Assembly (NCBI GenBank): GCA_017447625.1
Contig: JAFSNB010000037.1
Coordinates: forward strand, 1,630 to 65,629
Reading direction: 5' to 3'
DNA length: 64,000 nucleotides
Source of the DNA: Bacteroidaceae bacterium
Lineage (GTDB): Bacteria > Bacteroidota > Bacteroidia > Bacteroidales > Bacteroidaceae
In this document: one piece after another, positions 1,439-59,387 of the stretch
How positions within the stretch are numbered: position 1 is the first letter of the stretch
How the letters are laid out: each line of letters begins with the position of its first letter
Notes under the pieces: model-generated
Told to the model about the DNA's origin: nothing
Seen by the model: the letters and a program-made list of their open reading frames with translations, nothing else
The model's database searches: none
Translations under genes and position numbers: made by a program

Positions 1439-1453
1439 TGTGATAAGACCCAC

Positions 1454-1704
1454 CCCCGAACCCCTCCCGTGAGGGAGGGGAGCGGCTAGCGCTTGGAGGT
1501 TTATAGGGTCATTATTTTAAATTAACGATTTTACTATTAACGATTTACTATTGATATTTATTTTAAATACATCCCGCAGGATTCCCCTCCATTACGGGCG
1601 ACTGGGGTCTTTAGAGAAGCCACTGAATGTGGCTTCGGCCCCACAAAGGGGAGCGAATCCCCATTCGCGACGGAGGGCAGGTGCCCTTTAGGGCGGGGTG
1701 GGTC
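1454..1704. repeat. Composite repeat-filled operon spacer: chain of small GC hairpins plus AT-rich tandem units
   Basis: Hairpins seen: CCCCTCCC-GTGA-GGGAGGGG (1461-1480), GAAGCCAC-TGAAT-GTGGCTTC (about 1614-1636), CCCC-ACAAA-GGGG, GCGAAT-CCCC-ATTCGC. The region is bracketed by AAGACCCACCC (1446-1456) and GGGTGGGTCTT (1696-1706) in inverted orientation. Confidence 0.75.
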
Positions 1705-16699: not shown

Positions 16700-16718
16700 A
16701 ATTTGATTTTTAAGATTT

Positions 16719-16762
16719 GGACTCTCCCCCGCCCTCCCTGTTAGGGAGGGAGCAGAATGAGG
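16719..16762. repeat. Single arm of the GGACTCTCCCCC...CTCCCT-loop-AGGGAG element, in the 5' leader of GH51
   Basis: GGACTCTCCCCCGCCCTCCCTGTTAGGGAGGGAGCAGAATGAGG resembles 5989-6030 and 54310-54355. Confidence 0.85.
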
Positions 16763-25419: not shown

Positions 25420-25518
25420 AATGCGGCAATCCGCAATGTAAAATATAAAATGTAGAATCACTTCTGCCCTCGCCCCTATAGGCAGTCCTCCCCACCAGGG
25501 GGGAGTTAGAGGGGGGCC
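25400..25518. repeat. AAATGTA-type heptamer array (about 25400-25460) followed by GC hairpin module (25467-25518)
   Basis: The heptamer part reads AATGTAAAATGTAAAATGCGGCAATCCGCAATGTAAAATATAAAATGTAGAATC. The hairpin part reads CCCTCGCCCCTATAGGCAGTCCTCCCCACCAGGGGGGAGTTAGAGGGGGGCC. Confidence 0.8.
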
Positions 25519-25525
25519 AATCACC

Positions 25526-26011: not shown

Positions 26012-26145
26012 AGGCCCCCCATAATCCCCCGAAGGGGATGTGGGAAAGAGAAAAAGAGAAAAAATAAACGGCTGCAAAATCGTAAATAAACTCAATTGTA
26101 AATAAATCGTAAATAGTAAATAGTCAAATCGTAAATTTAATAGTG

Positions 26146-27438
26146 ATGAACTCAATAACACCTAAGACGAACAGAGGACAGGTAGATGCCCTGCTCGGTA
26201 TAGTTTTTGGAGACGAAGGCAAAGGAAAAGTCGTGGATGTGTTCACTCCGCGCTATGATGTCGTAGCCCGTTTCGCAGGCGGCCCCAATGCCGGACATAC
26301 GATTATCTTCGAAGGAAAGAAGTTCGTTCTTCGCAGTATTCCATCGGGAATCTTTGATGAGGGCAAGCTGAATATCATTGGCAATGGGTGCGTGATAGCC
26401 CCGGATCTCTTTATGAATGAGGCCCGCGAGCTGGAGACTGCCGGTTACGACCTGCGCAGCCGTCTTCACATCAGCAACCGCGCTCATCTTATCCTTCCTA
26501 CCCACCGTGTGCTCGACCGTGCTTACGAAGCAGCCAAAGGCAAGAACAAAGTAGGCACAACCGGCAAGGGAATCGGCCCCACCTACAGCGAGAAAGCGAG
26601 CCGTACGGGCCTTCGTGTGGGTGATATCATGGAAGGTTTCGAAGCCAAATATGCAGCTTTGAAGGCTCGTCATGAGCAGATCCTGCGCGACCTGCATTAC
26701 ACGGACTATGACATCACTGACGAAGAGCGTTTGTGGCTCGAGGGCGTTGAATACATGCGTCAGTTCGTAATCACCGACACAGCAACGGAAATCAACCGCC
26801 TTATTGACGAAGGCAAGAATGTTCTTGCCGAGGGCGCTCAGGGCACGATGCTCGACATCGATCACGGCACATATCCGTTTGTCTCCTCATCTTCAACCAC
26901 CACGGGCGGCGTATGCACCGGACTTGGCGTGGCTCCGAACCGTCTTGGCGAAGTATTCGGAATCTTCAAGGCTTATTCCACACGTGTCGGTTCCGGTCCC
27001 TTCCCCGTGGAGCTGTTCGACGAGACGGGCGACCGCATCCGCGAGATTGGTCATGAGTACGGGGCTGTCACAGGCCGTAACCGCCGTTGTGGGTGGGTTG
27101 ATCTTGTGGCTCTGAAATACGCTATAATGATAAACGGAGTCACCCAGCTGATAATGATGAAGGGAGACGTTCTGGACGGTTTCGACACCATCCGGGCCTG
27201 CGTTGCCTATGAGAAGAACGGACAGCGCGTCACAGATATGCCGTTTGACACCGAGGGCTGGCAGCCTGTCTATCGCGACTTCCCCGGCTGGACGGAGGAT
27301 CTCTCTACGATGACTTCGGAGCAGCAGTTCCCAAAGAACTTCAGCGATTATATCTCGTTCCTCGAATCTGAACTCCAGACCCCGATAACGATTATCTCTG
27401 TAGGTCCGGACCGAGCACAGACGATTATCAGGGGATAA
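26146..27438 (+). CDS. purA: Adenylosuccinate synthase
   Basis: GDEGKGKVVD, GPNAGHT, TTGKGIGPTY and GAQGTMLDIDHGTYPFVSSS. The ATG at 26146 is preferred over the GTG at 26143. Confidence 0.95.
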   Translation: MNSITPKTNRGQVDALLGIVFGDEGKGKVVDVFTPRYDVVARFAGGPNAGHTIIFEGKKFVLRSIPSGIFDEGKLNIIGNGCVIAPDLFMNEARELETAGYDLRSRLHISNRAHLILPTHRVLDRAYEAAKGKNKVGTTGKGIGPTYSEKASRTGLRVGDIMEGFEAKYAALKARHEQILRDLHYTDYDITDEERLWLEGVEYMRQFVITDTATEINRLIDEGKNVLAEGAQGTMLDIDHGTYPFVSSSSTTTGGVCTGLGVAPNRLGEVFGIFKAYSTRVGSGPFPVELFDETGDRIREIGHEYGAVTGRNRRCGWVDLVALKYAIMINGVTQLIMMKGDVLDGFDTIRACVAYEKNGQRVTDMPFDTEGWQPVYRDFPGWTEDLSTMTSEQQFPKNFSDYISFLESELQTPITIISVGPDRAQTIIRG

Positions 27439-27640
27439 GGCCTCTCCCCCAACCCCTCCCCGTGGGGGAGGGGAGTCCACAAACCACTAAATCAACGATA
27501 ACGCTAACGTTAACGATAACGACCAAGCTACTAAGCTACTAAACCACTAACCCCATTGGCCCAACCTCTCCCCCCCCCACGGGGGGAGCTGGAGGGGGGC
27601 CTACCAAACCACCAAACCACCAAAAAATCAGGGGAAGTTA
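27437..27640. repeat. Composite spacer: two GC hairpin modules (27437-27478, 27558-27602) separated and followed by short tandem arrays
   Basis: Hairpins CCCCTCCCC-GTGG-GGGAGGGG and CTCCCCCCCCC-ACGG-GGGGAG. The tandem arrays are of ACGATAACG, CTACTAAG and CAAACCAC types. All read directly. Confidence 0.8.
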
Positions 27641-27744: not shown

Positions 27745-31890
<4,146 letters not shown>

Positions 31891-32040: not shown

Positions 32041-32042
32041 AA

Positions 32043-35689: not shown

Positions 35690-35812
35690 ATTCGTACAAT
35701 TAACTTTGTTGATTATACTCCCGCTCGGCAGACTGAAAGCAAGCTTTCGTATGCTCTCGCTTATTCGTACAATTCGTATGATTCGTGTTCGAAAATAAAG
35801 CATCGCGCAGCC
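35690..35812. repeat. Intergenic module B (copy 2, direct)
   Basis: Near-identical to 32043-32166. Confidence 0.85.
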
Positions 35813-35854
35813 TAAATCATTAAATATAAAATCATTAAATCTTTAAGTTTCGTT
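35813..35854 (+). promoter_or_regulatory. Shared AT-rich leader motif (copy 2 of 3)
   Basis: TAAATCATTAAATATAAAATCATTAAATCTTTAAGTTTCGTT-ATG. Confidence 0.35.
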
Positions 35855-37885
35855 ATGAAACAAAAATTTCTTTTGAGCACAACTCTCTTGAGCGCCTTTA
35901 TGATGTTTATTTCAATTTCATCTGTGGCTCAGGAAAACAAGTTGAACAGCCCGGACAGCCAACTGTCAGTAACCCTGAACCTGTCTGGCGGCAAACCCAC
36001 ATATAGCGTCTCCCGCGCCGGAGCCGTATGTCTGGAGAACTCCCCTCTGGGTCTGAAGATGGACTTCGAGGACCTCACACAGGGTCTCACCCTGAAGGAG
36101 AGTAACATCCAGCCCGTGAAGGACGAGTACTCACTGAAGACCATCAAGCAGAGCCGTGTCACATACGAGGCCACCGAGGGCGTGTTCCAGTTCGAGAAGG
36201 ACGGCCGTCACGCCTTGGACATCATCTTCCGCGTGTCCAACCGCGACGTCGCTTTCCGCTATGTTGTATATCCGAAGAAGGGGAGACTCGTTGGAGTCGT
36301 GCAGAGCGAGGCCAGCGGCTTCAACCTGCCCGACGGCACAACCACCTTCCTCTGCCCGCAGTCGAAGCCTATGGGCGGTTTCGCACGCACCTCTCCCAGC
36401 TACGAGACCTCCTACACCCTCGACGAGCCCGCAGGCAAGAACGGCTGGGGCGAGGGCTACACCTTCCCCTGCCTCTTCCGCCTCCCCTCCAAACTGTCAA
36501 CTTCTCTCCCCCCCACGACTTCTCTCCCCCCTACGGGGGGAGCCGGAGAGGGGCTCGGAGAGGGGCCTTGGGTCTTGATCTCCGAGACCGGCACCGATGG
36601 CAATTACGTGGGCTGTCGCCTGCTTAACGACGGCGGCGCTGCCTACAAAATTGGCTTCCCGCAGGCTGGCGAGATGAACGGCGTCGGCTCTACCACGCCC
36701 TCTATCGCTCTGCCCGCAGCTACCCCTTGGCGCACCATAACCGTAGGTCCCACACTGAAGGAGATCGTGGAGACCACCGTCCCCTGGGATCTCGTTCAGC
36801 CCAAATACAAGGCCTCACGTGAATACACCTACGGCTGCGGTACCTGGTCCTGGATCATCAAGATGGACTCCAGCTGCAATTTCGACGAGCAGAAACAGTA
36901 CATCGACTTCGCCGCCGCCCTTGGCTACCGCTCCGTGCTCATCGATGCACTCTGGGACGTGCAGATTGGTTACGAGCGCATGGAAGAGCTGGCTCGCTAC
37001 GGCCGCTCCAAGGGCGTGGGCATCTTCCTCTGGTACAACTCCAACGGCGCGTGGAACGACGCTCCGCAGTCGCCCCTCGGCAAGATGGACCGCTCTGCCG
37101 CCCGTCGTCGTGAGATGGCTTGGATGCAGCGCACCGGCATCCTCGGCATCAAAGTGGATTTCTTCGGCGGTGACAAGCAGCCCATGATGCAACTCTACGA
37201 GGACATCCTTACCGACGCCAACGAGTTCGGTATTCAGGTCATCTTCCACGGCTGCACTCTGCCGCGTGGCTGGGAGCGTATGTATCCCAACTATGTCGCT
37301 TCGGAGGCCGTGCTCGCTTCGGAGAACCTCCATTTCGGTCAGGGCGCCTGCGACGCCGAGGCCCGCAACGGCTGCATCCATCCGTTCATCCGTAACACCG
37401 TCGGCTCTATGGATTTCGGAGGCTCCACGCTGAACAAGCGCTACAGCGCAGACAATCAGCATGGCACCTACCGTCGCACCAGCGATGTCTATGCCCTCGC
37501 CACCGCCGTCCTCTTCCAGAGCAGCGTCCAGCACTTCGCTATGGCTCCCAACAACCTCACCGACGCTCCTGCCTGGGCCATCGACTTCATGAAACAGGTT
37601 CCCACCACTTGGGACGAGGTCCGTTTCCTCGACGGCTATCCCGGTAAATACGTCATCTTTGCCCGTCGCAACGGTGACAAGTGGTACATCGCCGGCATCA
37701 ACGCCGAAGCAAAGCCGCTGAAGACCACCCTCACCCTGCCCATGTTCCCCGCGAAGTCCGAGGTCACCCTCTATGCCGACGACGCCACTCTCACCGGCAG
37801 CGTGAAAGCCGTCAAACTGAACAAAAAACAGCAGCTCTCCATCACAATCCCCCAGAACGGCGGCCTCGTAATCCTCGGGAAATAA
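35855..37885 (+). CDS. GH97 glycoside hydrolase (alpha-glucosidase/alpha-galactosidase family) carrying a repeat-encoded insertion
   Basis: N-terminal SPDSQLSVTLNLSGGKPTYSVSRAG..SPLGLKM is the typical GH97 N-domain. The TIM-barrel region includes IKVDFFGGD. The insertion is RLPSKLSTSLPPTTSLPPTGGAGEGLGEGP. Confidence 0.85.
   Translation: MKQKFLLSTTLLSAFMMFISISSVAQENKLNSPDSQLSVTLNLSGGKPTYSVSRAGAVCLENSPLGLKMDFEDLTQGLTLKESNIQPVKDEYSLKTIKQSRVTYEATEGVFQFEKDGRHALDIIFRVSNRDVAFRYVVYPKKGRLVGVVQSEASGFNLPDGTTTFLCPQSKPMGGFARTSPSYETSYTLDEPAGKNGWGEGYTFPCLFRLPSKLSTSLPPTTSLPPTGGAGEGLGEGPWVLISETGTDGNYVGCRLLNDGGAAYKIGFPQAGEMNGVGSTTPSIALPAATPWRTITVGPTLKEIVETTVPWDLVQPKYKASREYTYGCGTWSWIIKMDSSCNFDEQKQYIDFAAALGYRSVLIDALWDVQIGYERMEELARYGRSKGVGIFLWYNSNGAWNDAPQSPLGKMDRSAARRREMAWMQRTGILGIKVDFFGGDKQPMMQLYEDILTDANEFGIQVIFHGCTLPRGWERMYPNYVASEAVLASENLHFGQGACDAEARNGCIHPFIRNTVGSMDFGGSTLNKRYSADNQHGTYRRTSDVYALATAVLFQSSVQHFAMAPNNLTDAPAWAIDFMKQVPTTWDEVRFLDGYPGKYVIFARRNGDKWYIAGINAEAKPLKTTLTLPMFPAKSEVTLYADDATLTGSVKAVKLNKKQQLSITIPQNGGLVILGK
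36478..36567. repeat. About 90-bp GC hairpin element in frame within GH97
   Basis: AAACTGTCAACTTCTCTCCCCCCCACGACTTCTCTCCCCCCTACGGGGGGAGCCGGAGAGGGGCTCGGAGAGGGGCC. It belongs to the same family as 51415-51459, 58636-58723 and 27558-27602. Confidence 0.85.
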
Positions 37886-37989: not shown

Positions 37990-39624
37990 ATGAATATGAA
38001 GAATCTTCTTATGCTGCTGTTTGCTGTCACGCTGACGGCACAGGCACAGAACACGCCCAAGGAACCTTATTATCAGAAGGTGGAGGCGATTCAGAACCCG
38101 ATGTTGTGGGCAGATGTGCCTGACCCCGACGTGATCAGGGTGGGGGACACCTATTATCTGGTTTCGACCACGATGCACCTGATGCCGGGCGCACCCGTGA
38201 TGCGGTCCAAAGACCTGAAGAACTGGGAGACCGTGGGCTATATCTTCGACCGGCTGACGGACTCGCCCAAATACGACCTGCAGGAAGGCACGGTATATGG
38301 CCGCGGGCAGTGGGCTACGTCACTGAAGTATCACGACGGGAAGTTCTGGGCTCTGCTGGCTCCGAACGAGATGGGCAGTATGGGAGATACGTATATCTTC
38401 ACCGCTCCGAAGGCCGAAGGGCCGTGGACTATCCACTCGCGTCTGCGCCACTTCCACGACGCGACGCTGTTCTTCGACGACGACGGCACGCCGTATGTGT
38501 TCTTCGGAACGGGCGAGATGTGCCAGCTGACACGTGACCTGAAGGGGGTGGTAGATGGAAGTCTGCGCCGCTATTTCCAGAAAGAGGAGGACGAGCGCGG
38601 TCTGCTGGAAGGTACCCGCGTGATCAAGCACCGCGGCACCTACTACGCGCTGCTCATCAGCCACACGTACGCTCCCGGCCGTCACCGCCGCGAGGTCTGC
38701 TACCGCACGAAGGACCTGAAGGGGACGTGGGAGAAGAACGTGGTGTTAGAGAGCGATTTCGGCGGCTTCTCGTATCTGGCTCAGGGAACGATTGTGGATA
38801 GCGAATACGGCGACTGGTACGGTATTATGTTCCAGGATCGAGGCGGCGTGGGCCGTGTGCTCACGGTGTCGCCCGTGCGCTGGATTGACGGCTGGCCGCA
38901 GCTCGGCGACGAGAACGGCCGTGTGCCGGAGACGATGCGCCCACTGGTGAGCTGGCAGCCCGCAACGCAGATTGTGTGCAGCGACGACTTCAGCTCGACG
39001 AAACTGGGGCTGCACTGGCAGTGGAACCACAACCCGATAGACAACGCCTGGAGTCTGACTGAGCGCCCGGGATGCCTGCGTCTGAAGACCAACCGCGTGG
39101 TGCCGAACCTGTATCTGGCCCCGAACACTCTGACTCAGCGTATGTTTGGCCCGACATGCAGCGGCGCCGTATGCATAGATTTCGCGAAGATGAAGGACGG
39201 CGACTGCGCCGGATTCTCTGCCTTCAACGGCGACAGCGGCGTGCTCACGCTCAAGAAGAAGGGCAAGACCGTGACGCTGGAGATGAGCGAGCAGAAGGTG
39301 AGTCTGACTGACCGCGAGAAGGCCGTAACGAACGTGGATGAGAAGATTGTGGAGACTGTGGCACTCAGCAAGCTGTTACCCAAAGCCACGAAGATATGGC
39401 TGCGTATCGACGGCGACTTCCAACCCCGCCACAACGACGCTGCCAACTTCTTCTACAGCATGGACGGGCAGAACTGGACACAGATCGGCACCAAGGACTA
39501 CCGTTGTGTGTTCGATTACCGCCGCTTCTTCATGGGTTCGAAATTCGCCATCTTCAACTATGCCACAAAGAAAGCCGGAGGTTATGTCGATGTGGAGGAA
39601 TTTAAGATAAATGGCCCCCTATAA
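37990..39624 (+). CDS. GH43 beta-xylosidase/alpha-L-arabinofuranosidase with C-terminal lectin-like domain
   Basis: Signal peptide MNMKNLLMLLFAVTLTAQAQ, then NPMLWADVPDPDVIRVGDTYYLVSTTMHLMPGAPVMRSKDLKNWE. The ORF's 5' extension (37681-37989) overlaps GH97 and is rejected. The last 3 codons and the stop lie in a GC hairpin repeat (39612-39650). Confidence 0.85.
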   Translation: MNMKNLLMLLFAVTLTAQAQNTPKEPYYQKVEAIQNPMLWADVPDPDVIRVGDTYYLVSTTMHLMPGAPVMRSKDLKNWETVGYIFDRLTDSPKYDLQEGTVYGRGQWATSLKYHDGKFWALLAPNEMGSMGDTYIFTAPKAEGPWTIHSRLRHFHDATLFFDDDGTPYVFFGTGEMCQLTRDLKGVVDGSLRRYFQKEEDERGLLEGTRVIKHRGTYYALLISHTYAPGRHRREVCYRTKDLKGTWEKNVVLESDFGGFSYLAQGTIVDSEYGDWYGIMFQDRGGVGRVLTVSPVRWIDGWPQLGDENGRVPETMRPLVSWQPATQIVCSDDFSSTKLGLHWQWNHNPIDNAWSLTERPGCLRLKTNRVVPNLYLAPNTLTQRMFGPTCSGAVCIDFAKMKDGDCAGFSAFNGDSGVLTLKKKGKTVTLEMSEQKVSLTDREKAVTNVDEKIVETVALSKLLPKATKIWLRIDGDFQPRHNDAANFFYSMDGQNWTQIGTKDYRCVFDYRRFFMGSKFAIFNYATKKAGGYVDVEEFKINGPL

Positions 39625-39792
39625 TCCCCCGGCGGGGGATAAGGGGGAGAGACGAATTGCCCAAGCGAAGGCGAAAAAAAAGAAAAGAGAGATTTTCAGA
39701 GAAAAGATTTAAGCGGCCTGAGGGTTATTCGATTGACGATTAAACGATTAAAAATTATTCGGGATTTAAAGGCCGCAAAATAAGACTGCGTG

Positions 39793-43849: not shown

Positions 43850-46564
43850 ATGAAACGATTCCTACTATTTTCATACGCAATATTCTGCACTTTAATATCC
43901 TCTGCTCAAGCCCTCTTCTTTGGGCCTGAGCGACTCAGCAGTACTCTTATCACATCTGTCGTGCAGTCCAGCGACGGACTCATCTGGGTCGGAACATCCA
44001 ACGGGCTCAGCCGGTTCGACGGATACCGCTTCACGCAGACCAACGCTTTTGACGAACTCGGACGTCCGTTTGAGGTGTCTGAGCTCTTCTCAGACCAAAG
44101 CGGAAACCTCTGGGTCGGTACAGCCCGCGCCCTGTTGCTTCACGACCACGCTACAGACCAGATGTTGCCCGTAGCCTTCCCCGACAGTATTGAACCGCGA
44201 ATCACAAAACTCTCTTCCACCTCTGACGGGAAACTTCTGGTCGGAACGGCTGGCTATGGCTATTTCATCGTAGATCCCGCTACTCTGCAGGCGCAGCCGC
44301 GCAACGGAGCTATACCAAGCGGCGAGGAGGCCTTTATCAAAGACCAGAAAGTGCAGCCGCGACTGTTCGCTATGGCGCCTGAAGGAGTGCAGCTCACCTG
44401 CTCAGTTCAGGACAACTCCGGAAACATATATATAGGTACGCGTGGAAGCGGCCTCTTCTGGATTCCGGCCGGTATGTCCGAAATGCAGCGGAAACAGGTG
44501 TTCGTGAGCGGCATAGATCTGGACAGGGCTCGCATAGAGACTCTGTTTATAGACCGTCTGGGCAACCTCTGGGTTGGGTGTCAGCAGAAAGGACTCCTGA
44601 TGATTCCGCTCCACCGGATGCCGCTGTTCAACACGTGGAGCTTCTCGGAGCAGAAGCAAGAGCTGGGAACGTGCGTCTCTGCAATAGCCTCCCGTGCGGC
44701 AAATGGCAATCAGGCTGCGACCCAAATAATCTGGTGTGCCGTTCAGGGCGACGGGATTTACGGGTTCGACGAGAACGGAAAGATTGTGGCTCACCCCGCG
44801 TCTCCCACCGACGTGGAGACTCTGGCCTGCGATTCCGACGGAAACTTCTGGCTCGGCACGAACGGCAGTCTCTGGAGCTACGACCCCGAAAGCGGACAAG
44901 CACGCTTCAAGGCCCGTCTTGGAGGCGAGCGTGTGAACGTCATCAGGGAGATTGACAAAGAGCGACTGGCGGTGTCGGTGTTCGGCGAGGGCCTGTTTAT
45001 TGTGGAAAAGGCTTCAGGTACTGTGCTGCGCCATCTGTCTATGAACTCAACGGACACCGTAGGCCGAGGACGTCTTGCCAACGACTGGATATTCTGTCTT
45101 GACACCGATTCTCGCGGATGTCTGTGGATAGCCACCTCAGCAGGTGTTTGCTGCTATGATGTCAAGAGCGGGTCGTTCAAGTCCAAAGGCTGGTCTGTGC
45201 TGGTGGAAAACGAACAGTGTGAGGCTCTGTGTGTGACAGCGTCTGACGAGGTGTTCATTGCCAGCGAGCGCGGACTTATGCGCTGGAACTCTGAGCAGGG
45301 ACTGCAGCCGGAAAAAGGCTCCGACCTGTTACGCGGTAAGGGTGTTGCGTTTATGGCGGAGGACAGCGAGGGCGACCTGTGGCTAAGTACGAACGAAGGC
45401 ATCTGGCTGTGGAATCCAGAGGAAAAGATATTTGTGGAATATGTCGGAGCGTTCGGACTGAAAGAGCGCGAGTTCGTTCAGGGAGCGGGCTTGCAGACTC
45501 CCGACGGGAGAATCTATTTCGGCACATCCGACGGCATAACGTCCTTCTCGCCCGAAAAGTTGCGAAACCAGGTGCGTGAGACATCGACCGTGCATCTGAC
45601 ATCGTTTGTTATTGCAGGCGAGACAGCTAACGCACAGACACGCAGCAACGGGAAACTGGTTATGGACGGTCCCGTGTCCGAATGTCACCGATTCAACCTC
45701 AGTTATGTCGATGCGGTATTCAGACTGGAATTCTCGTTGTTGGACTTCGCCACCGCCGAGGGAGTCTCATTCGAGTACCGCATGAACGGCGAGAACGTAT
45801 GGCAGCAGACAGCCCAGGGAGAGAACTCCATCACATTCAGTCATCTGGCTCCCGGAACATATAATCTGGAGGTGCGGGCCATTGCCGGTGGTGTCTATAC
45901 TCCGTCGGAGACGTGGGTTATAGAGGTACGTCCACCCTGGTGGCGAACCACCTTTGCCCATTGCCTTTACGCCCTCTTGTTTATCGCTGGCGCAATCGCA
46001 GTGGCTGTGGCTTACAGACGATATATCCAACACCAGTTAGACAGGGAGAAACTCCACTTCCTGATGAGCGCCATAAACACCAAGGACACCCCGCTGACGC
46101 TGGACGACATGAAGCGCGCCATAAACAGTTTTGTGCAGAGCCGTAAACGCCAGCGCAGCATCTACGGCAACAGCGCCGAGATGGCAGACCAGATGGATAT
46201 GCTGACCGTACAGGGTAACGACGAGGCACTCATGGAGCGGGTGGTGCAGAGCGTAAACCGCCATCTGGGCGACAGCGATTTCAGCGTTGAACAGTTGTGT
46301 GAAGAGGCTGCCATCAGTCGCGCTCATCTGCATCGCAAGATGAAAGAGATGACGGGTTTGTCCGTTACCGAGTTCATACGTAACATACGCATGGAGCAGG
46401 CTGCACGCCTCCTGCGTGAACAGAAACTGAATATAACGCAGGTGGCCTACACCGTGGGCTTCTCCAATCTGGGATATTTCTCAACCATCTTTCGCAAACA
46501 TTTCGGCGTCTCGCCGCGCAGCTTTGTCAGCGACGCCCCCCTGCCCCCGGAGGGGGAAGATTAG
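43850..46564 (+). CDS. Transmembrane sensor-regulator: periplasmic beta-propeller/Y_Y_Y sensor, single TM helix and cytoplasmic AraC HTH; no histidine kinase or receiver domains
   Basis: Repeated propeller motifs (LWVGT, IWVGTSNGL). TM helix FAHCLYALLFIAGAIAVAVAY. About 90 aa later comes a canonical AraC HTH (EEAAISRAHLHRKMKE...VGFSNLGYFSTIFRKHFGVSP). No H-box, ATP-lid or receiver-domain motifs were seen. Confidence 0.8.
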   Translation: MKRFLLFSYAIFCTLISSAQALFFGPERLSSTLITSVVQSSDGLIWVGTSNGLSRFDGYRFTQTNAFDELGRPFEVSELFSDQSGNLWVGTARALLLHDHATDQMLPVAFPDSIEPRITKLSSTSDGKLLVGTAGYGYFIVDPATLQAQPRNGAIPSGEEAFIKDQKVQPRLFAMAPEGVQLTCSVQDNSGNIYIGTRGSGLFWIPAGMSEMQRKQVFVSGIDLDRARIETLFIDRLGNLWVGCQQKGLLMIPLHRMPLFNTWSFSEQKQELGTCVSAIASRAANGNQAATQIIWCAVQGDGIYGFDENGKIVAHPASPTDVETLACDSDGNFWLGTNGSLWSYDPESGQARFKARLGGERVNVIREIDKERLAVSVFGEGLFIVEKASGTVLRHLSMNSTDTVGRGRLANDWIFCLDTDSRGCLWIATSAGVCCYDVKSGSFKSKGWSVLVENEQCEALCVTASDEVFIASERGLMRWNSEQGLQPEKGSDLLRGKGVAFMAEDSEGDLWLSTNEGIWLWNPEEKIFVEYVGAFGLKEREFVQGAGLQTPDGRIYFGTSDGITSFSPEKLRNQVRETSTVHLTSFVIAGETANAQTRSNGKLVMDGPVSECHRFNLSYVDAVFRLEFSLLDFATAEGVSFEYRMNGENVWQQTAQGENSITFSHLAPGTYNLEVRAIAGGVYTPSETWVIEVRPPWWRTTFAHCLYALLFIAGAIAVAVAYRRYIQHQLDREKLHFLMSAINTKDTPLTLDDMKRAINSFVQSRKRQRSIYGNSAEMADQMDMLTVQGNDEALMERVVQSVNRHLGDSDFSVEQLCEEAAISRAHLHRKMKEMTGLSVTEFIRNIRMEQAARLLREQKLNITQVAYTVGFSNLGYFSTIFRKHFGVSPRSFVSDAPLPPEGED

Positions 46565-46699
46565 TTTAAAGTTTAGAGTTTATAGTTTAGAGACAGTTTA
46601 AGAAGTTTAAGAGTTTAAGGTAAAATGTAAAATTCAGCCCGCAGGCCTCCCCTCCATTACGGGAGGGGTTGGGGGTGGGTCTTTAAATCAATAAATTCA

Positions 46700-48907: not shown

Positions 48908-48980
48908 GAATAAAACACAAGTCCACAGAATCCCCCTCCCAAGGGAGGGGATAGGGGTGGGCCCTCGTCTTTAAACGTTT

Positions 48981-51900
48981 ATGAGAACAAAAGCCTTTCT
49001 TACCCTTGCTTTGTGTTTGCTGCCATTCGCAGGCAGTGCGCAGAACCCCTTCGGCAAAGCCCTCGTGCCCGACATGATAGCAGATGCCAGCATCGAGCTT
49101 ATCGGTGACACCTTCTATTGCTTTGCTACCACCGATGGCTATGGCCGCGGGCTGGAGACTTCGGGCCCGCCCGTGGTGTGGAAGTCAAAGGACTTCCTCC
49201 ATTGGAGTTTCGACGGAGTCTGTTTCCCATCGGCTGCCACAGAGAAGTTCTGGGCACCAAGCAAAGCCGTTGAGCGCGGCGGTCGCTGGTATCTCTATCC
49301 CACGGTGAACGGTTTTATGCACGTAGCTGTGGCAGATAAACCCGACGGCCCTTACCGCTTGGCACGCGGCGCGGACAAATTTGAGAAGCCCTTTACACCC
49401 GCCTCCACTCTGCTTCAGGGTAAGGATCGCGGCGGCATAGACACAGAGGTCTTCATTGATGACGACGGTCAGGCATACGTATTCTGGGGAATGCGCCACG
49501 TAGCGAAGCTTGCGGAAGATATGGTCACAGTTAGCGACATCAAGACTTTGGAGACGCGCCGTAAGGAGTATAGCGAAGGCCCGATCTTCTTCAAGCGCAA
49601 GGGGATATATTATTATCTCTACACTATCGGCGGTGACGAGAACTACGAGTATTATTATATGATGAGTCGCACGTCGCCTTTCGGCCCGTACGAGACACCC
49701 AAGCACGACCTCGTATCCACGACCGACGTTGAGCGTGGAGTCTTCGGCCCGGGCCATGGGTGTGTGTTCAACGACGGAGACAACTATTACTTCGCTTTTC
49801 TGGAGTTCGGCCGCAACAGCACCAACCGCCAGACATATGTCAACAAGATGGAATTCAACGAGGACGGGACGATACGTCAGGTGCGAGTCTCGTTAGACGG
49901 CGTCGGGGCTCTCCGACACGAGAGCGGCAACCGCGAACTGCGCCCCGTATCCATCACAGCTTCCAGCACAATGGAGCCAAAGAAGATACGCTATTTCAAC
50001 GACCGTCGTTGCGACCGCACCGAGCGTTTCGATGCCGCCTTTGCCATAGACGGAGCCAACGGCTCGCGCTGGATGAGCGTAAATGCGGATTCCGCTACAT
50101 CTAACTGGTTGATGATAGATCTCGGCAAAAGCATGAAAATTAGTAGCAGCGAGATTGCTTTTGTCCGTCCTACGGCTGGCCACGCCTACGTTCTCGAAGG
50201 CTCTCAGGACGGCGTGAAATGGAAACGCTGCGGAGGTCACGCCGACGTGCAGCTACGTTCACCCCACACCGATAATATAAACAAAGCCTTCCGATACCTG
50301 CGCGTCACCATAACCAAGGGTGTGCAGGGCGTCTGGGAGTGGCGCGTACTTGGCGATCAGCCCATAGACCCCCGCTATGCATCTAACCAGCCCACTGTGC
50401 GCTGGGGCGATTGGCAGATTTGGGGAGAAGTCCCCCAGGCGCAGCAGCTCCCCTCCATTACGTACCGCAACCCCGTAATCCCAGCCGACTACAGCGACCT
50501 CGACTGCATCCGCGTAGGTGATGACTACTATGCCATCAGTTCCACGATGCAGTTCTCGCCCGGGATGTCAATCCTGCACTCGCGCGACCTCGTCAACTGG
50601 GAGATTGCTGGCAACGCCGTAGCTGACCTCACACAAATCTCTCCAGCCCTCAGTTGGAAGGAGATGGACCGCTACGGACGCGGTATTTGGGCAGGCACCC
50701 TGCGTCACCACAACGGCCGCTTCTATCTTTTCTTCGGTGCACCCAACGAGGGCTATTTCATGACTTCAGCCGAGAAAGCCGAGGGGCCGTGGGAGCCGCT
50801 TACGACGCTTCTTGCCGAAGAGGGCTGGGACGACTGCACTGCCATCTGGGATGAGCAAGGAAAGGCTTGGTTTGCAGGCACCTGTTTCCGCGATGGTTAC
50901 AAGACATACATCTTCCGCATGTCCGACGATGCCAAGAGCATAGACCGCGCCAGCGCACGTCTGGTAAACGAAGGTAACGGGCGCGAGGCCAGCAAACTGA
51001 TATACCACGATGGTTACTATTATCTGATATTTAGCGAACACCGCGGGGGCATAGGCCGTTATGTTATGGCTAAGCGCGACCGCAAGATGACGGGGAAGTT
51101 CAATGAGGAGCGTCAGCTGCTGCTCCCCTGTGTTGAATCCAACGAACCTAATCAGGGCGGCGTAATCCTCGGTCCAGATGATAAGTGGTATTTCCTGACT
51201 CATCACGGCTCGGGCGACTGGAGCGGACGCATAGTCAGTCTCTTGCCCGTAGAGTGGTACGAGGGTTGGCCTATGATGGGAAACACCTCTGGCGGACAGC
51301 CCGGCTCAATGGTTTGGGAGGCAAGAATAGAGAAAAGAGAAGAAGAGAAAAAATTATATCTCCAGCGCAGCGACGAGTTCGACGGGACTTATCAGTTATC
51401 CTCTTCCTCACAGGTTCTCTCCCCCCCACGGGGAGAGTCGGAGAGGGGCCTCTCCCCTCAGTGGCAATGGAACTACCAGCCGCGTACGGAGATGTTCTCT
51501 CTCACCGAACGTCCCGGATGGCTTCGTCTGAAAGCTTTCCGTCCACTGGAGAACGATAAGCTGCTGAAGGCTGGCAACACCATCACACAGCGTTCCTTCC
51601 GTTCGCGTCACAACGAAGTCACCGTCCGCATAGATATCAGCTGCATGGCCGACGGTCAGCACGCCGGACTAACACATTTCGCCAGCGAGTCAGGCTGTCT
51701 CGGTCTGGTGTGCGAGAATGGAAAGACATATATTGAACGCCGTCATAACGACCACGCAGAACGTGGTGCCGAAGTCAGTTGCCAGTACATCTGGTTACGC
51801 TCCACGTGGGGGCTCGACGGTCGTTCGCGCTTCTCCTACAGTACCGACGGCGACCGCTTCGTCCCCTGCAATGACTACCATCTCTCTTGGGGCTTCTATC

Positions 51901-51989: not shown

Positions 51990-51993
51990 AAGA

Positions 51994-52140
51994 GGACTCT
52001 CCCCCCTGCCCCTCCCTGGAGGGAGGGGAGTAATTAGAAGACAAGAAGTGATAACAGGGCGCAAATTATGAATTATGCATTATGCATTATGAATTAACAA
52101 AGTGCAGCCCCAATTATGAATTATGAATTGTGAATTATGA
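51994..52140. repeat. Spacer composed of one GGACTCTCCCCCC...CCTCCCT-GGAG-GGAGGGGAG arm (51994-52030) and ATTATGA/C heptamer arrays (about 52066-52140)
   Basis: Read directly. The ltaE start codon lies in the last heptamers. Confidence 0.8.
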
Positions 52141-53268: not shown

Positions 53269-54384
53269 TTAAAAGGCGATGGGTTTGAGGCGGAGACCGG
53301 TGTCTTCGGGAAGACCGAACATGAGGTTCATGTTCTGGAGGGCTTGGCCGCTGGCGCCTTTGAGGAGGTTGTCTATTATGCTGGTGACGAGAAGTTTGTT
53401 CTCGTATTTTTCGATGTGGACGAGGGCTTTGTTGGTGTTCACCACCTGCTTCAGGTCTATGTCGTGATCGATATAGTGAGTGAAGGCGGCATCGGCGTAG
53501 AAGTGGCGGTAGAGGTCTGCCACAGCGTCCTCGGAGCTGTCCTCGTTCAGGCGGACGAGCTCTGTGCAGAAGATGCCTCGTGGGAAGTCGCCGCGATAGG
53601 GGATGAAGTCTATGGCGGCGCTGAACTCGGGCTGCAGTTGTGTGAGCGATTGGCGGATTTCTGCGAGATGCTGATGTCGGAAAGGCTTGTAGATGCTCAG
53701 GTTACCGGTGCGCCACGAGAAATGGGTGGTTGCAGCGGGCTTCACGCCTGCGCCGGTTGAGCCGGTGATAGCGTTTACGCTGATGTCGGAGGTGAGCAGA
53801 CCTGCAGCTGCCAGCGGGAGGAGTCCGAGCTGGATGGCTGTGGCGAAGCAGCCCGGGTTAGCCACGAAACGAGCCTTGCGTATTTCCTCACGATTGAGTT
53901 CGGGCAAACCATATATCCAATTCATAATTGGTAATTCATAATTCTTAATTTCCTGGCGGGATGCATCGTGCAACCCAGATTGTGAAATTACCCTAAAATC
54001 TTGTGCGAGGTCGATTATGCGGACGTGGTCCGGGATGTTGTGTTCGCGCAGGAACTGCTCGCTCTTACCGTGCCCGAAACAGAAGAAGAGCACATCAACG
54101 GCGTCAAAGGGCATCTCTGCGGTGAAGCGCAGGTCGGATTCGCCGAGAAGACCCTCGTGGACGTCAGCCACAGGGTTCCCGGCGTTGGACTCGCTGTTTG
54201 CAAACACAATCTCTGCCTCGGGGTGATTCAGCAGCAGGCGGATAAGCTCTCCGCCCGTGTAGCCTGCCGCCCCGAGAAGGCCGACTTTGATGACGGACTC
54301 TCCCCCCAAGGACTCTCCCCCCGCCCTCCCTTGTAGGGAGGGAGCAGAATGAGTTTGGCTGGATGAGTTCTCTTTATGACTCAT
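53269..54384 (-). CDS. argC: N-acetyl-gamma-glutamyl-phosphate reductase with repeat-encoded N-terminal extension and internal insertion
   Basis: GAAGYTGGELIRLLLNHPE (NAD-binding motif) and NPGCFATAIQLGLLPL (active-site Cys). The only in-frame start is the ATG at 54384, inside or next to the repeat. Confidence 0.9.
   Translation of the reverse strand: MSHKENSSSQTHSAPSLQGRAGGESLGGESVIKVGLLGAAGYTGGELIRLLLNHPEAEIVFANSESNAGNPVADVHEGLLGESDLRFTAEMPFDAVDVLFFCFGHGKSEQFLREHNIPDHVRIIDLAQDFRVISQSGLHDASRQEIKNYELPIMNWIYGLPELNREEIRKARFVANPGCFATAIQLGLLPLAAAGLLTSDISVNAITGSTGAGVKPAATTHFSWRTGNLSIYKPFRHQHLAEIRQSLTQLQPEFSAAIDFIPYRGDFPRGIFCTELVRLNEDSSEDAVADLYRHFYADAAFTHYIDHDIDLKQVVNTNKALVHIEKYENKLLVTSIIDNLLKGASGQALQNMNLMFGLPEDTGLRLKPIAF
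53919..53985. repeat. About 66-bp AT-rich intergenic-type repeat inserted in frame inside argC
   Basis: The reverse complement GATGCATCCCGCCAGGAAATTAAGAATTATGAATTACCAATTATGAATTGG aligns with the intergenic GATACATCCCGCCAGGCAATTATGCAATATGAATTAATAATTATGAATTGA at 58488-58540. Confidence 0.8.
54295..54365. repeat. GGACTCTCCCCCC (x2) plus CTCCCT-TGTA-GGGAG hairpin arm, encoding the ArgC N-terminal extension
   Basis: GGACTCTCCCCCCAAGGACTCTCCCCCCGCCCTCCCTTGTAGGGAGGGAGCAGAATGAGTTTGGCTGGATG belongs to the same family as 5989-6050. Confidence 0.85.
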
Positions 54385-54416: not shown

Positions 54417-55658
54417 CTATCGCTCCTCGTCTTTATGAATTCCGTAATAAACGCGGAGGGGGGTGGAGAGAACTTTGATGAAGCCCTTGGCCTCGTCAGC
54501 AGTCCATCCCGTCTGTGTCTCGCCGTATTCTCCGAGCTTGGATTTGGTGAGGTCGTTGACGGAATCCACGCCTACTGTCTCGTAACCGAGCGGACGAAGT
54601 TTGAGGATGGAGGTTCCGGTGACGTTGCGCTGTGATGAGGTTAGCATAGCCTCTATATCTGGCATAACGGGCTCGAGATACTGGCTCTCGTGAAGGAACA
54701 TTCCGTACCAGTTGGCGACCTGATCCTTCCAATACTGTTGCCATTTGGAGAGGGTGGATTTCTCCAACAGGCGGTGAGCCTCGATGATGAGTTTGGGAGC
54801 TGCGGCCTCGAAGCCTACGCGTCCCTTGATGCCGATAATTGTATCGCCCACATTGGCGTCGCGGCCAATGGCATAGCTGGCGCCGATCTCCTCGATCTTC
54901 TGGATGGCTTTCACGCGGTCGTTGAAGTGTTCGCCGTTGACGCCTACAATCTCTCCGCGCTCAAATTCGATGCGGAGCAGGCTCTCGTCGGTGCGGGTGG
55001 GGTGTTTCAGATAAGCCTCTTCGGGCAGTCCCTGAGTGGCATCCAGGAGTTCGCCGCCGCAGATGCTTGTGCCCCATATACCTACGTTGTATGAATACTT
55101 CAGTTTGGCGAAATCGGCGTTGAAGCCGTGGGCGTTAAGATAATCCACTTCCTCCTTGCGGGTGAGTTTCTTGTCGCGAGTGAGGGTGATGATTTCCACT
55201 CCGGGGGCCATAACGAGGAAGGTCATGTCAAACCGTATCTGGTCGTTGCCTGCGCCTGTAGAGCCGTGGGCTATGGCGTCAGCACCGATCTCGTTGGCAT
55301 AGCGTGCTATAGCGATGGCCTGGAAGATGCGCTCGCTGCTGACGGAAATCGGGTAACAGTTGTTACGGAGCACGTTGCCGAAAATCATGTATTTCAGCGA
55401 CTTCTCATAATATTCGTGTGTGACGTCGAGGGTTACATACTTCGTGGCTCCCAGTTTGTAGGCGTTTTCCTCGTTTATGCGCAGTTGCTCAGGGCTGAAA
55501 CCTCCTGTGTTTGCGCACGCTGCGTGAACCTCATAGCCCATTTCTTTTGCCAGATACATCACGGTATAACTGGTGTCAAGCCCTCCGGAGAAGGCTACTA
55601 CTACTACTTTGGCCCCCTTTGCCCCCCGGAGGGGGGGGTTGTTTCCTGCTGTATTCAT
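54417..55658 (-). CDS. argG: Argininosuccinate synthase with repeat-encoded N-terminal residues
   Basis: VVVAFSGGLDTSY (ATP pyrophosphatase motif) and a length of about 400 aa. N-terminal MNTAGNNPPLRGAKGA is encoded by the GC hairpin at 55611-55641. Confidence 0.92.
   Translation of the reverse strand: MNTAGNNPPLRGAKGAKVVVVAFSGGLDTSYTVMYLAKEMGYEVHAACANTGGFSPEQLRINEENAYKLGATKYVTLDVTHEYYEKSLKYMIFGNVLRNNCYPISVSSERIFQAIAIARYANEIGADAIAHGSTGAGNDQIRFDMTFLVMAPGVEIITLTRDKKLTRKEEVDYLNAHGFNADFAKLKYSYNVGIWGTSICGGELLDATQGLPEEAYLKHPTRTDESLLRIEFERGEIVGVNGEHFNDRVKAIQKIEEIGASYAIGRDANVGDTIIGIKGRVGFEAAAPKLIIEAHRLLEKSTLSKWQQYWKDQVANWYGMFLHESQYLEPVMPDIEAMLTSSQRNVTGTSILKLRPLGYETVGVDSVNDLTKSKLGEYGETQTGWTADEAKGFIKVLSTPLRVYYGIHKDEER
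55611..55641. repeat. GC hairpin module (GGCCCCC..CCCCCC-GGAG-GGGGGG) at the argG 5' end
   Basis: GGCCCCCTTTGCCCCCCGGAGGGGGGGGTTG. Related to 39612-39650, 26009-26045 and 56041-56075. Confidence 0.8.
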
Positions 55659-56074
55659 AGGTGTTGTTTTATCTTATTAATAACTAAGTTAATGTTTCCG
55701 ATTATTTCGTCATTACTAAAACGTATGACTTTAAGTCCTTGAGATTCTAACCATTGTGTGCGTTCTGCATCGCTGACTTGTTGTTCAGGTAACTGATGAT
55801 ATCCCCCATCTACCTCAATAACAAGTTTGCGTGAGAGGCAGACAAAGTCTGCAATGAATTGTCCAATTATCTGTTGTCTTCTGAAGGATGCGCCTAAATT
55901 CCTTTCTTTAATGTATTCCCACAATATACTTTCAGCTTGTGTCTGGTTCTTCCGGTTTTTATCAGCCAAATCCTTCAACAATGCGTATGTTGCACAATCC
56001 GCAGTTTGGTATAGTGGTTTCCGAAATAACTCATCTGGCTGATCGCCCCCCCTCTGGGGGGCTAAGGGGGGCAT
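55655..56074 (-). CDS. DUF559 (Vsr/MutH-fold) endonuclease-domain protein inserted in the arg operon
   Basis: QAESILWEYIKERNLGASFRRQQIIGQFIADFVCLSRKLVIEVDGGYH...ERTQWLESQGLKVIRFSNDEI is the DUF559 signature. The segment is AT-rich. The start is taken at MPPL (56074). An ATGA overlap with the argG start lies at 55655-55658. Confidence 0.7.
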   Translation of the reverse strand: MPPLAPQRGGDQPDELFRKPLYQTADCATYALLKDLADKNRKNQTQAESILWEYIKERNLGASFRRQQIIGQFIADFVCLSRKLVIEVDGGYHQLPEQQVSDAERTQWLESQGLKVIRFSNDEIIGNINLVINKIKQHL

Positions 56075-58544: not shown

Positions 58545-59387
58545 ATGAGTAAAGGGAAACTGGCCAAGTTTGCCGATATGGCATCCTACCCGCACGTCTT
58601 CGAATTTCCTATGGGGAAGTTCGAAGACGTTCCTTCAACTGTCAAGTCTCAGCAACTTTCCCCCTCACAGCAGTTCTCCCCCCCACGGGGGGAGTCAGAG
58701 AGGGGCCTCACTGTCAACTGTCCTCTGCGTGGGCGCTGGCGTGAGGATTTCTTCAAGAACGACAACCCGATAGTCTTGGAGTTGGGCTGCGGACGCGGAG
58801 AGTATGCCGTAGGGCTGGCCCGCCGTTATCCCGACCGCAACTTCATCGGGGTGGATATCAAGGGTGCGCGTATGTGGAGCGGTGCCACAGAGTCGCTGCA
58901 GGAGGGCCTGAAGAACGTAGCTTTCCTGCGCACAAACATTGAGATTATCGACCGCTTCTTCGCTCCAGGCGAGGTTCAGGAGATCTGGCTCACCTTCTCC
59001 GATCCGCAGATGAAGAAAGCCACCAAACGCCTCACCTCTTCTTATTTCCTTGCTCGCTACCGCCGCTTCCTTGCAGACGGAGGACTTATTCATCTGAAGA
59101 CAGACTCAAACTTCCTCTTCACATATACAAAATATGTGGCGGAAGTGAATAAGCTGCCTGTAGAGGTTTGCACGGAGGATTTGTATAAGGGAGGGGAGGG
59201 CTCTCTCGACCTCTCTATCCGCACATATTACGAGCAGCAGTGGTTGTCTCGCGGCATTTCCATTAAATATATGCGGTTCCGCCTGCCGCACGATGGCGAA
59301 CTGACGGAACCGGATGTCGAGATAGAGATGGACGATTATCGCAGCTACAACCGCGACAAACGCTCTTCGCTCACTATGAGCAAATAG
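58545..59387 (+). CDS. trmB: tRNA (guanine-N7)-methyltransferase with repeat-encoded insertion
   Basis: GKLAKFADM..., SAM motif [32 protein letters not shown] and HLKTDS. The insertion [29 protein letters not shown] lies upstream of the SAM motif. Confidence 0.9.
58636..58723. repeat. About 88-bp GC hairpin element in frame within trmB, flanked on both sides by ACTGTCA heptamers
   Basis: CAACTGTCAAG...TTCTCCCCCCCACGGGGGGAGTCAGAGAGGGGCCTCACTGTCAACTGTCC. Confidence 0.85.

Follow-up and report, generated by a model that had tools for sequence, protein, structure and literature searches.

A family of short GC-rich hairpin repeats, present between and in frame within genes, in a Bacteroidaceae bacterium and some rumen Prevotellaceae

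A hairpin element within a GH97 gene

We analysed a 64,000-nt stretch of contig JAFSNB010000037.1 (positions 1,630 to 65,629; assembly GCA_017447625.1) from a Bacteroidaceae bacterium, hereafter the window. An open reading frame (ORF) of 676 aa at 35855-37885 contains the Pfam domains GH97_N, Glyco_hydro_97 and GH97_C, with the GH97_N match split in two. Within it, at 36478-36567, lies one copy of a GC-rich hairpin repeat that recurs in spacers and in unrelated genes of the window and is the subject of this work. The copy belongs to type C of the subfamilies described below.

36482..36567, plus strand: type C element in GH97; about 25 extra residues in a β-turn of the N-terminal domain

The element has a AAACTGTCAAC flank on its 5' side, a hairpin, CTCCCCCC-TAC-GGGGGGAG, and duplications of the C-arm with its loop (18 nt) and of the G-box (12 nt). 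The insert DNA, ...AAACTGTCAAC TTCTCTCCCCCCCACG ACTTCTCTCCCCCCTACGGGGGGAG CCGGAGAGGGGCT CGGAGAGGGGCC..., encodes the peptide LPSKLSTSLPPTTSLPPTGGAGEGLGEGPW, and the protein across the insert junction reads LPPTGGAGEGLGEGPW. Orthologues of about 75% identity have a turn of 4-5 residues (K-TADKG-W) where the window has about 30, and the loop varies from 4 to 32 residues across 80 genomes. The AlphaFold2 model of the protein (mean predicted local distance difference test score (pLDDT) 65, predicted template modelling score (pTM) 0.42) was too poor for mapping the loop; we therefore used sequence alignment to 5xfm, the closest solved structure; the alignment stops at query residue 211 and restarts at 235, and chain residue 202 marks both points. 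In the related loci L058 and L067 this position is taken by other copies of the hairpin family. Strain L086, whose protein is 97% identical, has a single unduplicated copy that is 30 nt shorter, and the window version equals that of L086 plus the 18-nt C-arm/loop duplication and the 12-nt G-box duplication. The ratio of nonsynonymous to synonymous polymorphism (pN/pS) between strains is 0.18 for this gene.

Poly-C and poly-G tracts are error-prone and the data all come from metagenome assemblies, points in favour of reading the inserts as homopolymer-related assembly or sequencing errors, or their host ORFs as decaying pseudogenes. We regard this as extremely improbable, given that the GH97 protein and its insert are identical in four independent assemblies (ENA and Logan samples), that 99%-identical TrmB and GH43 proteins carrying their inserts occur in other samples, and that the reading frames are intact with pN/pS values of 0.16-0.18.

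The hairpin module recurs across the window

A blind scan of the whole window for perfect stems of at least 6 bp, whose 5' arm is C at 70% or more of its positions and whose loop measures 3-6 nt, found 19 loci with a C-arm, loop and G-arm, against 0.37 ± 0.55 (maximum 2) expected by chance from 30 first-order Markov shuffles. The original prediction had proposed a hairpin module recurring throughout the window, and a C-rich arm, short loop and G-rich arm are indeed found at all of its coordinates. The 4-nt loop it described is too strict, since loops are 3-6 nt long. Its listed copies all contain hairpin sequence, with that at 46541-46564 weak and doubtful as a member of the family, and the peptides it quoted proved correct on translation. 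nhmmer profiles recovered 16 strong copies of types A to C, together with remnants; type D, with about 7 copies in the 64 kb, is weaker.

The hairpins fall into at least four subfamilies, A to D, each consisting of a hairpin and a second G-rich (or C-rich) box. The basic module has a C-rich arm of 7-9 bp, a loop of 3-6 nt, a G-rich arm and then the second G-rich box; with the copies all oriented alike this order is the same in each, the opposite strand showing a C-rich box followed by the hairpin.

Type A: consensus (CATCCAGYCAAAYTCATTCTGC)TCCCTCCCT-nnn-AGGGAGGG-C-GGGGGGAGAGTCC; nhmmer copies at 5988-6032 (minus), 6083-6127 (plus), 16718-16761 (minus), 51993-52037 (minus) and 54309-54353 (minus)
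Type B: consensus CCCCTCCnTnACGGGAGGGG-TT-GGGGGTGGGTCTT; nhmmer copies at 1444-1488 (minus), 1575-1606 (degenerate), 31696-31740 (minus), 46640-46685, 48924-48966 and 50442-50462 (half-copy)
Type C: consensus TTCTCTCCCCCCC-ACG-GGGGGAG-TCR-GAGAGGGGCC; nhmmer copies at 25482-25521, 27436-27476 (minus), 27564-27603, 36518-36555, 51413-51453 and 58670-58710
Type D (weaker): consensus GGCCCCCyWTAATCCCCC-nnn-GGGGGAT; copies at 26013-26044, 39612-39653, 55611-55643, 56041-56072, 9924-9963 and 10529-10600

When the box motif was searched for by itself, a hairpin of at least 6 bp lay alongside in 94% (type A), 70% (type B) and 73% (type C) of cases, compared with 2-3% for shuffled flanks, so box and hairpin constitute one module. 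Larger forms of type A are an inverted doublet of 113-170 nt and a half-element with its own ATG and a leader of about 10 codons. Its 3' boundary is sharp at GAGAGTCC, and the information content of the flank falls to about 0 directly outside. Among aligned copies, CTAC is found 1-2 nt 5' of the C-arm in a subset only (for example GTAACTACTCCCCTCCC), its place being taken elsewhere by TTCTGCT or GCGCAGCC. The GCGCAGCC-type motif recurs ahead of many type B and type C hairpins.

Non-coding DNA makes up 11% of the window yet holds nine of the 16 strong copies (P = 1.4e-5), an enrichment consistent with selection having purged most coding insertions. The other seven lie within ORFs, always in loops, linkers or termini. 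The copies in spacers and at gene boundaries are as follows.

1444..1488, minus strand: type B, intergenic, ending 6 nt upstream of the ATG of an HlyD-family gene; a degenerate type B copy at 1575-1606
16718..16761, minus strand: type A, intergenic, between two arabinofuranosidase genes
25482..25521, plus strand: type C, intergenic
26013..26044, plus strand: type D, directly after the stop codon of a Fur-family gene
27436..27476, minus strand: type C, starting directly after the purA stop codon
27564..27603, plus strand: type C, intergenic; C-box and G-box form a long palindrome (-15.4 kcal/mol as single-stranded DNA)
39612..39653, plus strand: type D, overlapping the 3' end of GH43 (37990-39624)
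46541..46564, plus strand: weak 5-bp C/G hairpin at the C-terminus of an AraC-type sensor-regulator (nhmmer E = 3.6)
46640..46685, plus strand: type B, intergenic
48924..48966, plus strand: type B, intergenic
51993..52037, minus strand: type A, intergenic, starting 4 nt past a GH43 stop codon

The hairpin sequence earlier assigned to the GH43 C-terminus and stop at 39612-39624 is present and can be refined to the C-box of the type D copy, whose TAA at 39622-39624 is the GH43 stop codon; the GH43_C2 domain ends at residue 540 of 544. Type D was also considered as the source of the Fur stop codon and rejected, the coordinates placing the start of the element just past the stop. Intrinsic (Rho-independent) termination was likewise rejected as the identity of the hairpins: no T tract follows them, and the type A to C copies in 44000-60000 are not flagged as terminators on the gene strand. 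Rfam 15 gave zero matches at gathering score in the whole window, and a tRNA scan of the window found nothing.

Filled and empty alleles in trmB

Two sites in trmB differ between the window and the related locus L085.

58632..58725, plus strand: type C composite in trmB (ORF 58545-59387); hairpin and GAGAGGGGCC box, flanked by ACTGTCAA oligonucleotide motifs
59190..59201, plus strand: GGAGGGGAGGGC remnant (GGEG) at a second trmB site, where L085 has a full type B element

Where the empty allele has 10 nt, the composite has 94, so that the gene gains 84 nt net (28 codons). Most of 120 TrmB orthologues are free of the insert and read HVFE-YPFSVVED-VPFEMRGRW (YPFSVVEDVPFEMRGRW). L085 also lacks the composite, its trmB matching that of the window at 87 of 87 nt on the upstream side and at about 97% on the downstream side. 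At the second site, after TEDLYK, it is L085 that carries a type B copy, with a net 69 nt more than the window, which keeps only GGAGGGGAGGGC. The two loci form a reciprocal filled/empty polymorphism in a housekeeping gene, with indels of 84 and 69 nt. The pN/pS of trmB between strains is 0.16. In the AlphaFold2 model of TrmB the insert (residues 24-56) has a pLDDT below 50 and the core a pLDDT above 90.

At the TrmB hot spot other lineages carry AT-rich oligonucleotide repeats: QLSTFNFQLST repeats are found in the trmB genes of L209 and L210, and one lineage has a long palindrome made of (AATGACGAAT)n...(ATTCGTCATT)n.

Copies in other coding regions

51413..51459, plus strand: type C in the double GH43 gene (48981-51989), within the linker that joins the GH43 catalytic and GH43_C2 domains
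50442..50462, plus strand: type B half-copy (CTCCCCTCCATTACG, no G-arm) in an inter-domain linker of the same gene
5989..6126, minus strand: full-length type A doublet of 138 nt, two inverted hairpin-box modules around a spacer
54295..54384, minus strand: type A half-element at the argC start; ATG leader, hairpin and duplicated G-box
55611..55643, minus strand: type D-like, argG codons 6-16; CCCCCC-TCCG-GGGGGG and a GGGGGCC box
56041..56072, minus strand: type D-like, C-terminus of ORF 56031-56678
31696..31740, minus strand: type B inside the GH2 ORF (27769-31890), antisense to the gene

The insert in the double GH43 gene amounts to 19 residues (804-822) and is missing from 70 orthologues; P0273 and P0290 carry different hairpin-type inserts at the same linker site. 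The GH2 copy falls in the linker from the F5/8 type C domain, which ends at residue 1298, to the C-terminal tail. ORF 56031-56678, previously labelled GNAT, has zero Pfam hits.

The 138-nt doublet is read through as the linker of a 5'-nucleotidase-C/metallophosphatase ORF (5212-6867) of permuted order, with the 5'-nucleotidase C-terminal domain ahead of the metallophosphatase domain. Public homologues comprise separate genes (about 250 and 280 aa) and fused forms of 503-571 aa with short or unrelated linkers. An artefactual fusion of two genes via the repeat was rejected, as fused, permuted homologues with other linkers exist elsewhere; the fusion is accordingly older than the element or independent of it.

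At argC the element yields MSHKENSSSQTHSAPSLQGRAGGESLGGES, some 30 extra N-terminal residues, and the protein reads MSHKENSSSQTHSAPSLQGR across the junction. ArgC homologues in the PDB align from query residue 31-35, and there are zero alternative start codons before the conserved IKVGLLGAAGYTGGEL. ArgG has an N-terminal extension of about 16 residues relative to solved homologues (residue 3 of Thermus thermophilus ArgG corresponds to query residue 19), with no alternative start codon downstream of the element. The argR-(ORF)-argG-argC cluster is otherwise compact, apart from a 372-nt spacer of lower GC (55659-56030) between argG and the ORF upstream.

The repeats are shared as DNA

The same type C DNA is read as LPPTGGAGEG in GH97 and as a peptide of a different frame in trmB and the double GH43 gene. 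Type A DNA likewise gives PSLTGRAGGES, PLPHREGQGGES or SLPNREGGGRV, and the matches listed include readings in three sense frames as well as antisense. Element DNA also occurs in non-coding spacers, with near-identical strings of 35-75 nt in unrelated genes. These spacer copies, and the reading of one DNA in different frames, bear out the original prediction of nucleotide-level repeats rather than protein motifs.

An alternative at the protein level is that the inserts are low-complexity linkers rich in Pro, Gly and Ser that evolve by slippage, their likeness to intergenic DNA being compositional. The GH97 loop, GH43 linker and TrmB site do vary in length and hold many low-complexity inserts without hairpins, and tandem duplications of 18, 12 and 15 nt occur within copies. 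Such linkers would not account for strings of 35-75 nt shared, with arm complementarity and box, by spacers and unrelated genes, nor for a box-hairpin linkage far above that in shuffles or for a type A pattern of 28 bases in at least 120 unrelated metagenome contigs. The use of different frames and of both strands largely refutes this explanation, which we judge very unlikely.

All measured indels (84, 69, 57, 30 (18 + 12) and about 75 nt) are multiples of three and have no in-frame stop. The type B and type C cores lack stops in five of six frames, so an unbroken ORF is by itself weak evidence and the informative feature is solely a length divisible by three; in the type A leader form just the ATG frame is open. 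Elements are read in stop-free frames, and frame usage thus resembles a filter for open frames. By sequence criteria the host genes are not pseudogenes, and we infer that the in-frame inserts are translated. Orthologues of GH97, the double GH43 and TrmB that lack the segments were found. Neither of the two contrary outcomes named in the original prediction, segments shared by all orthologues with amino-acid but not nucleotide conservation or host ORFs that prove to be disrupted pseudogenes, was encountered. Tolerant placement, for which a test of surface loops was suggested there, agrees with the alignment break at 5xfm, the low pLDDT of the TrmB insert and the position of copies between Pfam domains or at termini.

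Distribution in related genomes and type A copies at gene starts

The closest species-level genomes by GH97 are metagenome-assembled genomes (MAGs) of uncultured rumen Prevotella/Prevotellaceae, at no more than 74% identity, and GH97 synteny and homology place the host itself among rumen Prevotellaceae. We fetched 80 GH97-syntenic loci from GTDB species for comparison of hairpin density. There are 3.0 hairpins per 10 kb in the window and 2.3-4.1 in L058, L015, L067 and L012; most of the other syntenic loci have zero, among them some of 58-61% GC. With nhmmer we found 287 copies in 2.34 Mb of related DNA (234 type A, 41 type B and 12 type C), about two-thirds of them in ORFs of at least 150 aa and in both orientations. 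A scan for type A with a pattern of 28 specified bases matched at least 120 public metagenome contigs. A phage origin is not supported, the type A and type C patterns having no match in 2.9 million viral contigs.

Among the matches listed, 68 of 88 unique type A copies are spanned by ORFs of at least 120 aa, and 34 lie in sense at codons 5-18, mostly 10-14, of long ORFs, preceded by a semi-conserved leader, ATG...AAAGAGAAYWCATCCAGYCAAAYTCATTCTGCT. When ten such ORFs were tested, the Pfam domains of nine began directly after the element; they represent U32 peptidase, NadC, RadC, ArgB, Lpd, PurM, GltB, UDP-GlcNAc 2-epimerase and IlvN. The leader cassette is internal in the trmB gene of L207, and a version with ATA for ATG lies inside the nucleotidase linker of the window; the ATG is therefore part of the element.

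Strong GC hairpins are plausible signals for bypass or processing, and Di Nocera et al. caution that many N-terminal repetitive extragenic palindromic (REP) sequences may in fact be extragenic (PMC3733652). On that basis the inserts could be left untranslated, through excision from the mRNA, ribosome skipping as in the byp elements of yeast mitochondria or T4 gene 60, or initiation at a downstream start. In ArgC, ArgG, ArgB and Lpd the stretch from the element to the conserved N-terminal motifs has no ATG, GTG or TTG, and the preservation of frame in every measured indel, free of in-frame stops, would be needless if the segment were removed or skipped. We hold this explanation to be highly improbable.

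Between orthologous purM-like genes of two species (L139 911-1000 and L143 4316-4420), identity is 100% in the type A hairpin arms and G-box, about 50% in the leader and about 87% in the coding DNA downstream. Constraint on the nucleotides, gene conversion or two independent insertions into one site may underlie this pattern.

Such conservation would be in keeping with a function in the host. The hairpins might be host-selected regulatory RNA or DNA structures at gene boundaries, coding copies being overlaps with gene ends; candidates are mRNA stabilisers, attenuators in which the C-arm pairs with the G-arm or the G-box, G-quadruplex or i-motif switches, and protein-binding sites. Most copies do lie at gene boundaries, some following a stop codon (27439, 26013, 51993), one 6 nt ahead of a start (1444) and others at codons 10-14, and the purM pair keeps arms and G-box perfectly while leader and synonymous sites diverge. 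As read from the sequence, the type B G-arm and box, GGGAGGGGTTGGGGGTGGG, form a canonical four-tract G-quadruplex motif, and by inspection rather than computation, pairing of the type A G-box to the C-arm is possible at the cost of one mismatch and two G-U pairs. The G-quadruplex motif is not common to types A, C or D, and the hairpins have neither T tracts, terminator calls on the gene strand nor Rfam matches. Copies also occur in mid-gene and in both orientations, most related genomes are entirely without elements at orthologous loci, and presence or absence differs between near-identical strains within a housekeeping gene. A regulatory origin is on this evidence unlikely.

The N-terminal copies raise a second functional possibility. 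The type A half-element, which encodes M..KEN.SSQ..SAPSLTGRAGGES, could be a portable translation-start cassette (ATG, leader of about 10 codons, hairpin and G-box) that replaces native starts and is kept for shared post-transcriptional or translational control, a proposal we consider speculative. It may have replaced the native start codons of dozens of rumen Prevotellaceae genes with housekeeping or biosynthetic roles, including argC, argB, purM, nadC, lpd, gltB and ilvN, which we likewise rate as rather unlikely. That the cassette is a mobile cis-regulatory and coding module, its hairpin and G-box having two alternative pairings, and not merely a tolerated parasite, is a similarly tentative suggestion.

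A model for the spread of the elements

[quoted passage not shown] New copies would land anywhere, and purifying selection would purge most coding insertions. Those that survive in genes would be the ones with a length that is a multiple of three and a stop-free frame, in a surface loop, inter-domain linker or terminus, where the Pro/Gly/Ser/Glu/Arg-rich peptide may be tolerated as a disordered stretch. Copies at gene ends could provide a start codon (type A leader) or a stop codon (type D). Resident copies would change by slippage, with duplication or deletion of arms and boxes, and by partial deletion. Spread may occur by transposition of single-stranded hairpin DNA through a trans-acting RAYT (REP-associated tyrosine transposase) or IS200/IS605-type enzyme, as suggested by the doublet structure and the lack of target duplications. 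Type A doublets of 113-170 nt are found in the window (5989-6126) and in L093, L138, L113, L117, L126 and others, with inverted termini of about 35 nt.

Several observations weigh against this superfamily of mobile repeats. None of 13 type A doublets has a target-site duplication, and no target-site consensus marks an insertion. No transposase, RAYT, Y1_Tnp domain or parent insertion sequence (IS) was found among the ORFs scanned in the 64 kb, so mobility is inferred from distribution and polymorphism only; nor was any matching pair of termini 260-4000 nt apart present in 2.3 Mb of related fetched loci. In trmB the filled allele has 94 nt where the empty one has 10, which is a replacement and not a clean insertion. 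The GH97, GH43 and TrmB sites hold different inserts in different lineages, and such recurrence could mark permissive sites with local slippage or recombination instead of repeated transposition. Conservation of the purM arms and box hints at constraint or gene conversion beyond a purely selfish element. With the shared insertion sites and the purM pair in view, site preference, gene conversion or some host function could also play a part. Folded as single strands, the modules have energies of -8 to -15 kcal/mol, no better than composition-matched shuffles of C and G runs (z -0.3 to -1.9); since the shuffles fold equally well, the fold z-scores are uninformative.

Neighbouring repeats and islands

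The window holds other repeats. AT-rich oligonucleotide leaders with a period of 7-9 nt stand directly before most start codons (for example 46565-46639, 52060-52136, 54385-54416, 4490-4552, 26070-26145 and 58500-58544). Their units include tttaaagtttagag, aattatgaatt, caatgttcaatg, aatcgtaaat and aatgtaaaat, and similar leaders occur in related metagenome contigs. AT-rich oligonucleotide repeats are also in frame inside proteins, in the tails of GH2 (31782-31826) and GH98 (35255-35292). The C-terminal tails of GH2 (31725-31890) and GH98 (35293-35404), some 35-50 residues, are nearly identical in protein and DNA, and could represent a C-terminal sorting domain or a recent conversion between neighbours. 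A 45-nt insert flanked by TCAATGG in the GH2 tail has no counterpart in that of GH98, which is otherwise near-identical and has NIEHSPLNIEHS.

A low-GC island (10429-14677; 39-40% GC against about 54%) is probably a mobile element that has integrated. The two copies of a 51-nt direct repeat (10803-10853 and 14564-14614) flank it, and its ORFs comprise a VapE-like gene (13254-14300) and others for which Pfam gave no hit. Two hairpin-plus-box variants in tandem lie at the left edge of the island (10529-10600). At 4262-4500, 31891-32050, 35405-35854 and 58419-58500 there are longer repeats, intergenic and about 80-200 nt in length, examples being cttcaacattaattgccattaatt...gataattatatgtgaaaaa and attcataattattcgactycgctcatcagtacgtcataa...gctgcgcga.

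Significance

In-frame palindromic repeats are usually cast as peculiar to Rickettsia and to reductive evolution, whereas those described here are dense in free-living, abundant rumen Prevotellaceae. Extrapolation of the window density, about one copy per 3 kb, gives on the order of a thousand copies per genome. They decorate core enzymes (TrmB, ArgC and ArgG) and polysaccharide-degrading glycoside hydrolases, and strains differ in their copies, which makes the repeats a source of length variation, linkers, gene fusions and start and stop codons. They confound gene calling, start-site prediction, orthologue clustering and the assembly of rumen MAGs, and could be used as strain markers. The natural filled and empty alleles are tractable for the study of insertion tolerance and of hairpin-repeat movement in Bacteroidota.

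Comparison with known systems

RPEs (Ogata et al. 2000, 2002) are reviewed as palindromic repeats of about 150 bp (PMC10969869; also summarised in PMC3733652). The original prediction drew an analogy with them that holds for behaviour and not for membership. Both are palindromic repeats found in spacers and in frame in unrelated, apparently functional genes, at tolerant positions and as N-terminal decorations, with a presence that varies by lineage; translation of the copies described here is predicted. The host here is a free-living rumen bacteroidote and not an obligate intracellular alpha-proteobacterium. The modules are 35-75 nt long (doublets 113-170 nt) and have very GC-rich poly-C/poly-G arms and a second G-box, and one subfamily carries its own ATG and leader. 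Host, GC-richness and length (35-140 nt) appear to set the elements apart from families RPE-1 to RPE-10 of the genus Rickettsia.

REP/REPIN elements are mobilised by RAYT transposases (Bertels & Rainey 2011, PMC3116915), and REPs inside ORFs and at ORF N-termini have been reported in several phyla, including in Opitutus and Rickettsia (Di Nocera et al. 2013, PMC3733652). Shared with them are imperfect palindromes of 20-40 nt in many dispersed copies, occurrence as singlets and as inverted doublets with a short spacer, the lack of target duplications and a typical site just downstream of genes. The elements described here differ in the extra G-box beside the hairpin and in that no RAYT was found in the available sequence. 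In place of a GTAG/CGTC tag they have CTAC in some copies only, with a polarity opposite to that of canonical GTAG REPs. Nor are they predominantly extragenic, with 7 of 16 strong copies in the window, 68 of 88 type A copies among the matches listed and about two-thirds of the 287 related copies in ORFs.

Bacterial MITEs are reported to be about 90% intergenic (PMC11602168), and BrickBuilt of Porphyromonas gingivalis is described as strictly intergenic (PMC4596501, as cited in PMC10969869). MITEs such as Correia, ERIC, BOX and BrickBuilt are, like the present elements, small non-autonomous repeats; some form in-frame fusions, and BrickBuilt shows that Bacteroidales host composite small repeats. 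The type A doublets resemble them in their inverted termini of about 35 nt. Terminal inverted repeats combined with a fixed-length target-site duplication are not found here, solo half-modules dominate, and no parent IS with matching ends was detected in the window or the 2.3 Mb of fetched loci. We do not file the elements under REPs or MITEs because of the missing REP tag, the large coding fraction and the lack of a target duplication.

GC-rich mobile hairpins are also known in mitochondrial genes, as the GC clusters of yeast, the byp elements of Magnusiomyces and the double-hairpin elements of Allomyces. There too, short GC-rich hairpins invade coding sequence without destroying gene function. 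Those systems are organellar, and byp breaks the frame and is skipped by the ribosome, whereas the inserts described here keep the frame and would be read through.

Our literature search on Prevotella and Bacteroidota returned only BrickBuilt in P. gingivalis and general MITE/REP surveys, with no description of this family and no characterised REP/RAYT-like system in Bacteroidota. Intragenic REPs and RPEs are known already; what is new here is the lineage, and the points of chief note are the high fraction of copies in coding sequence, the dynamics between strains in core genes and the start-codon cassette.

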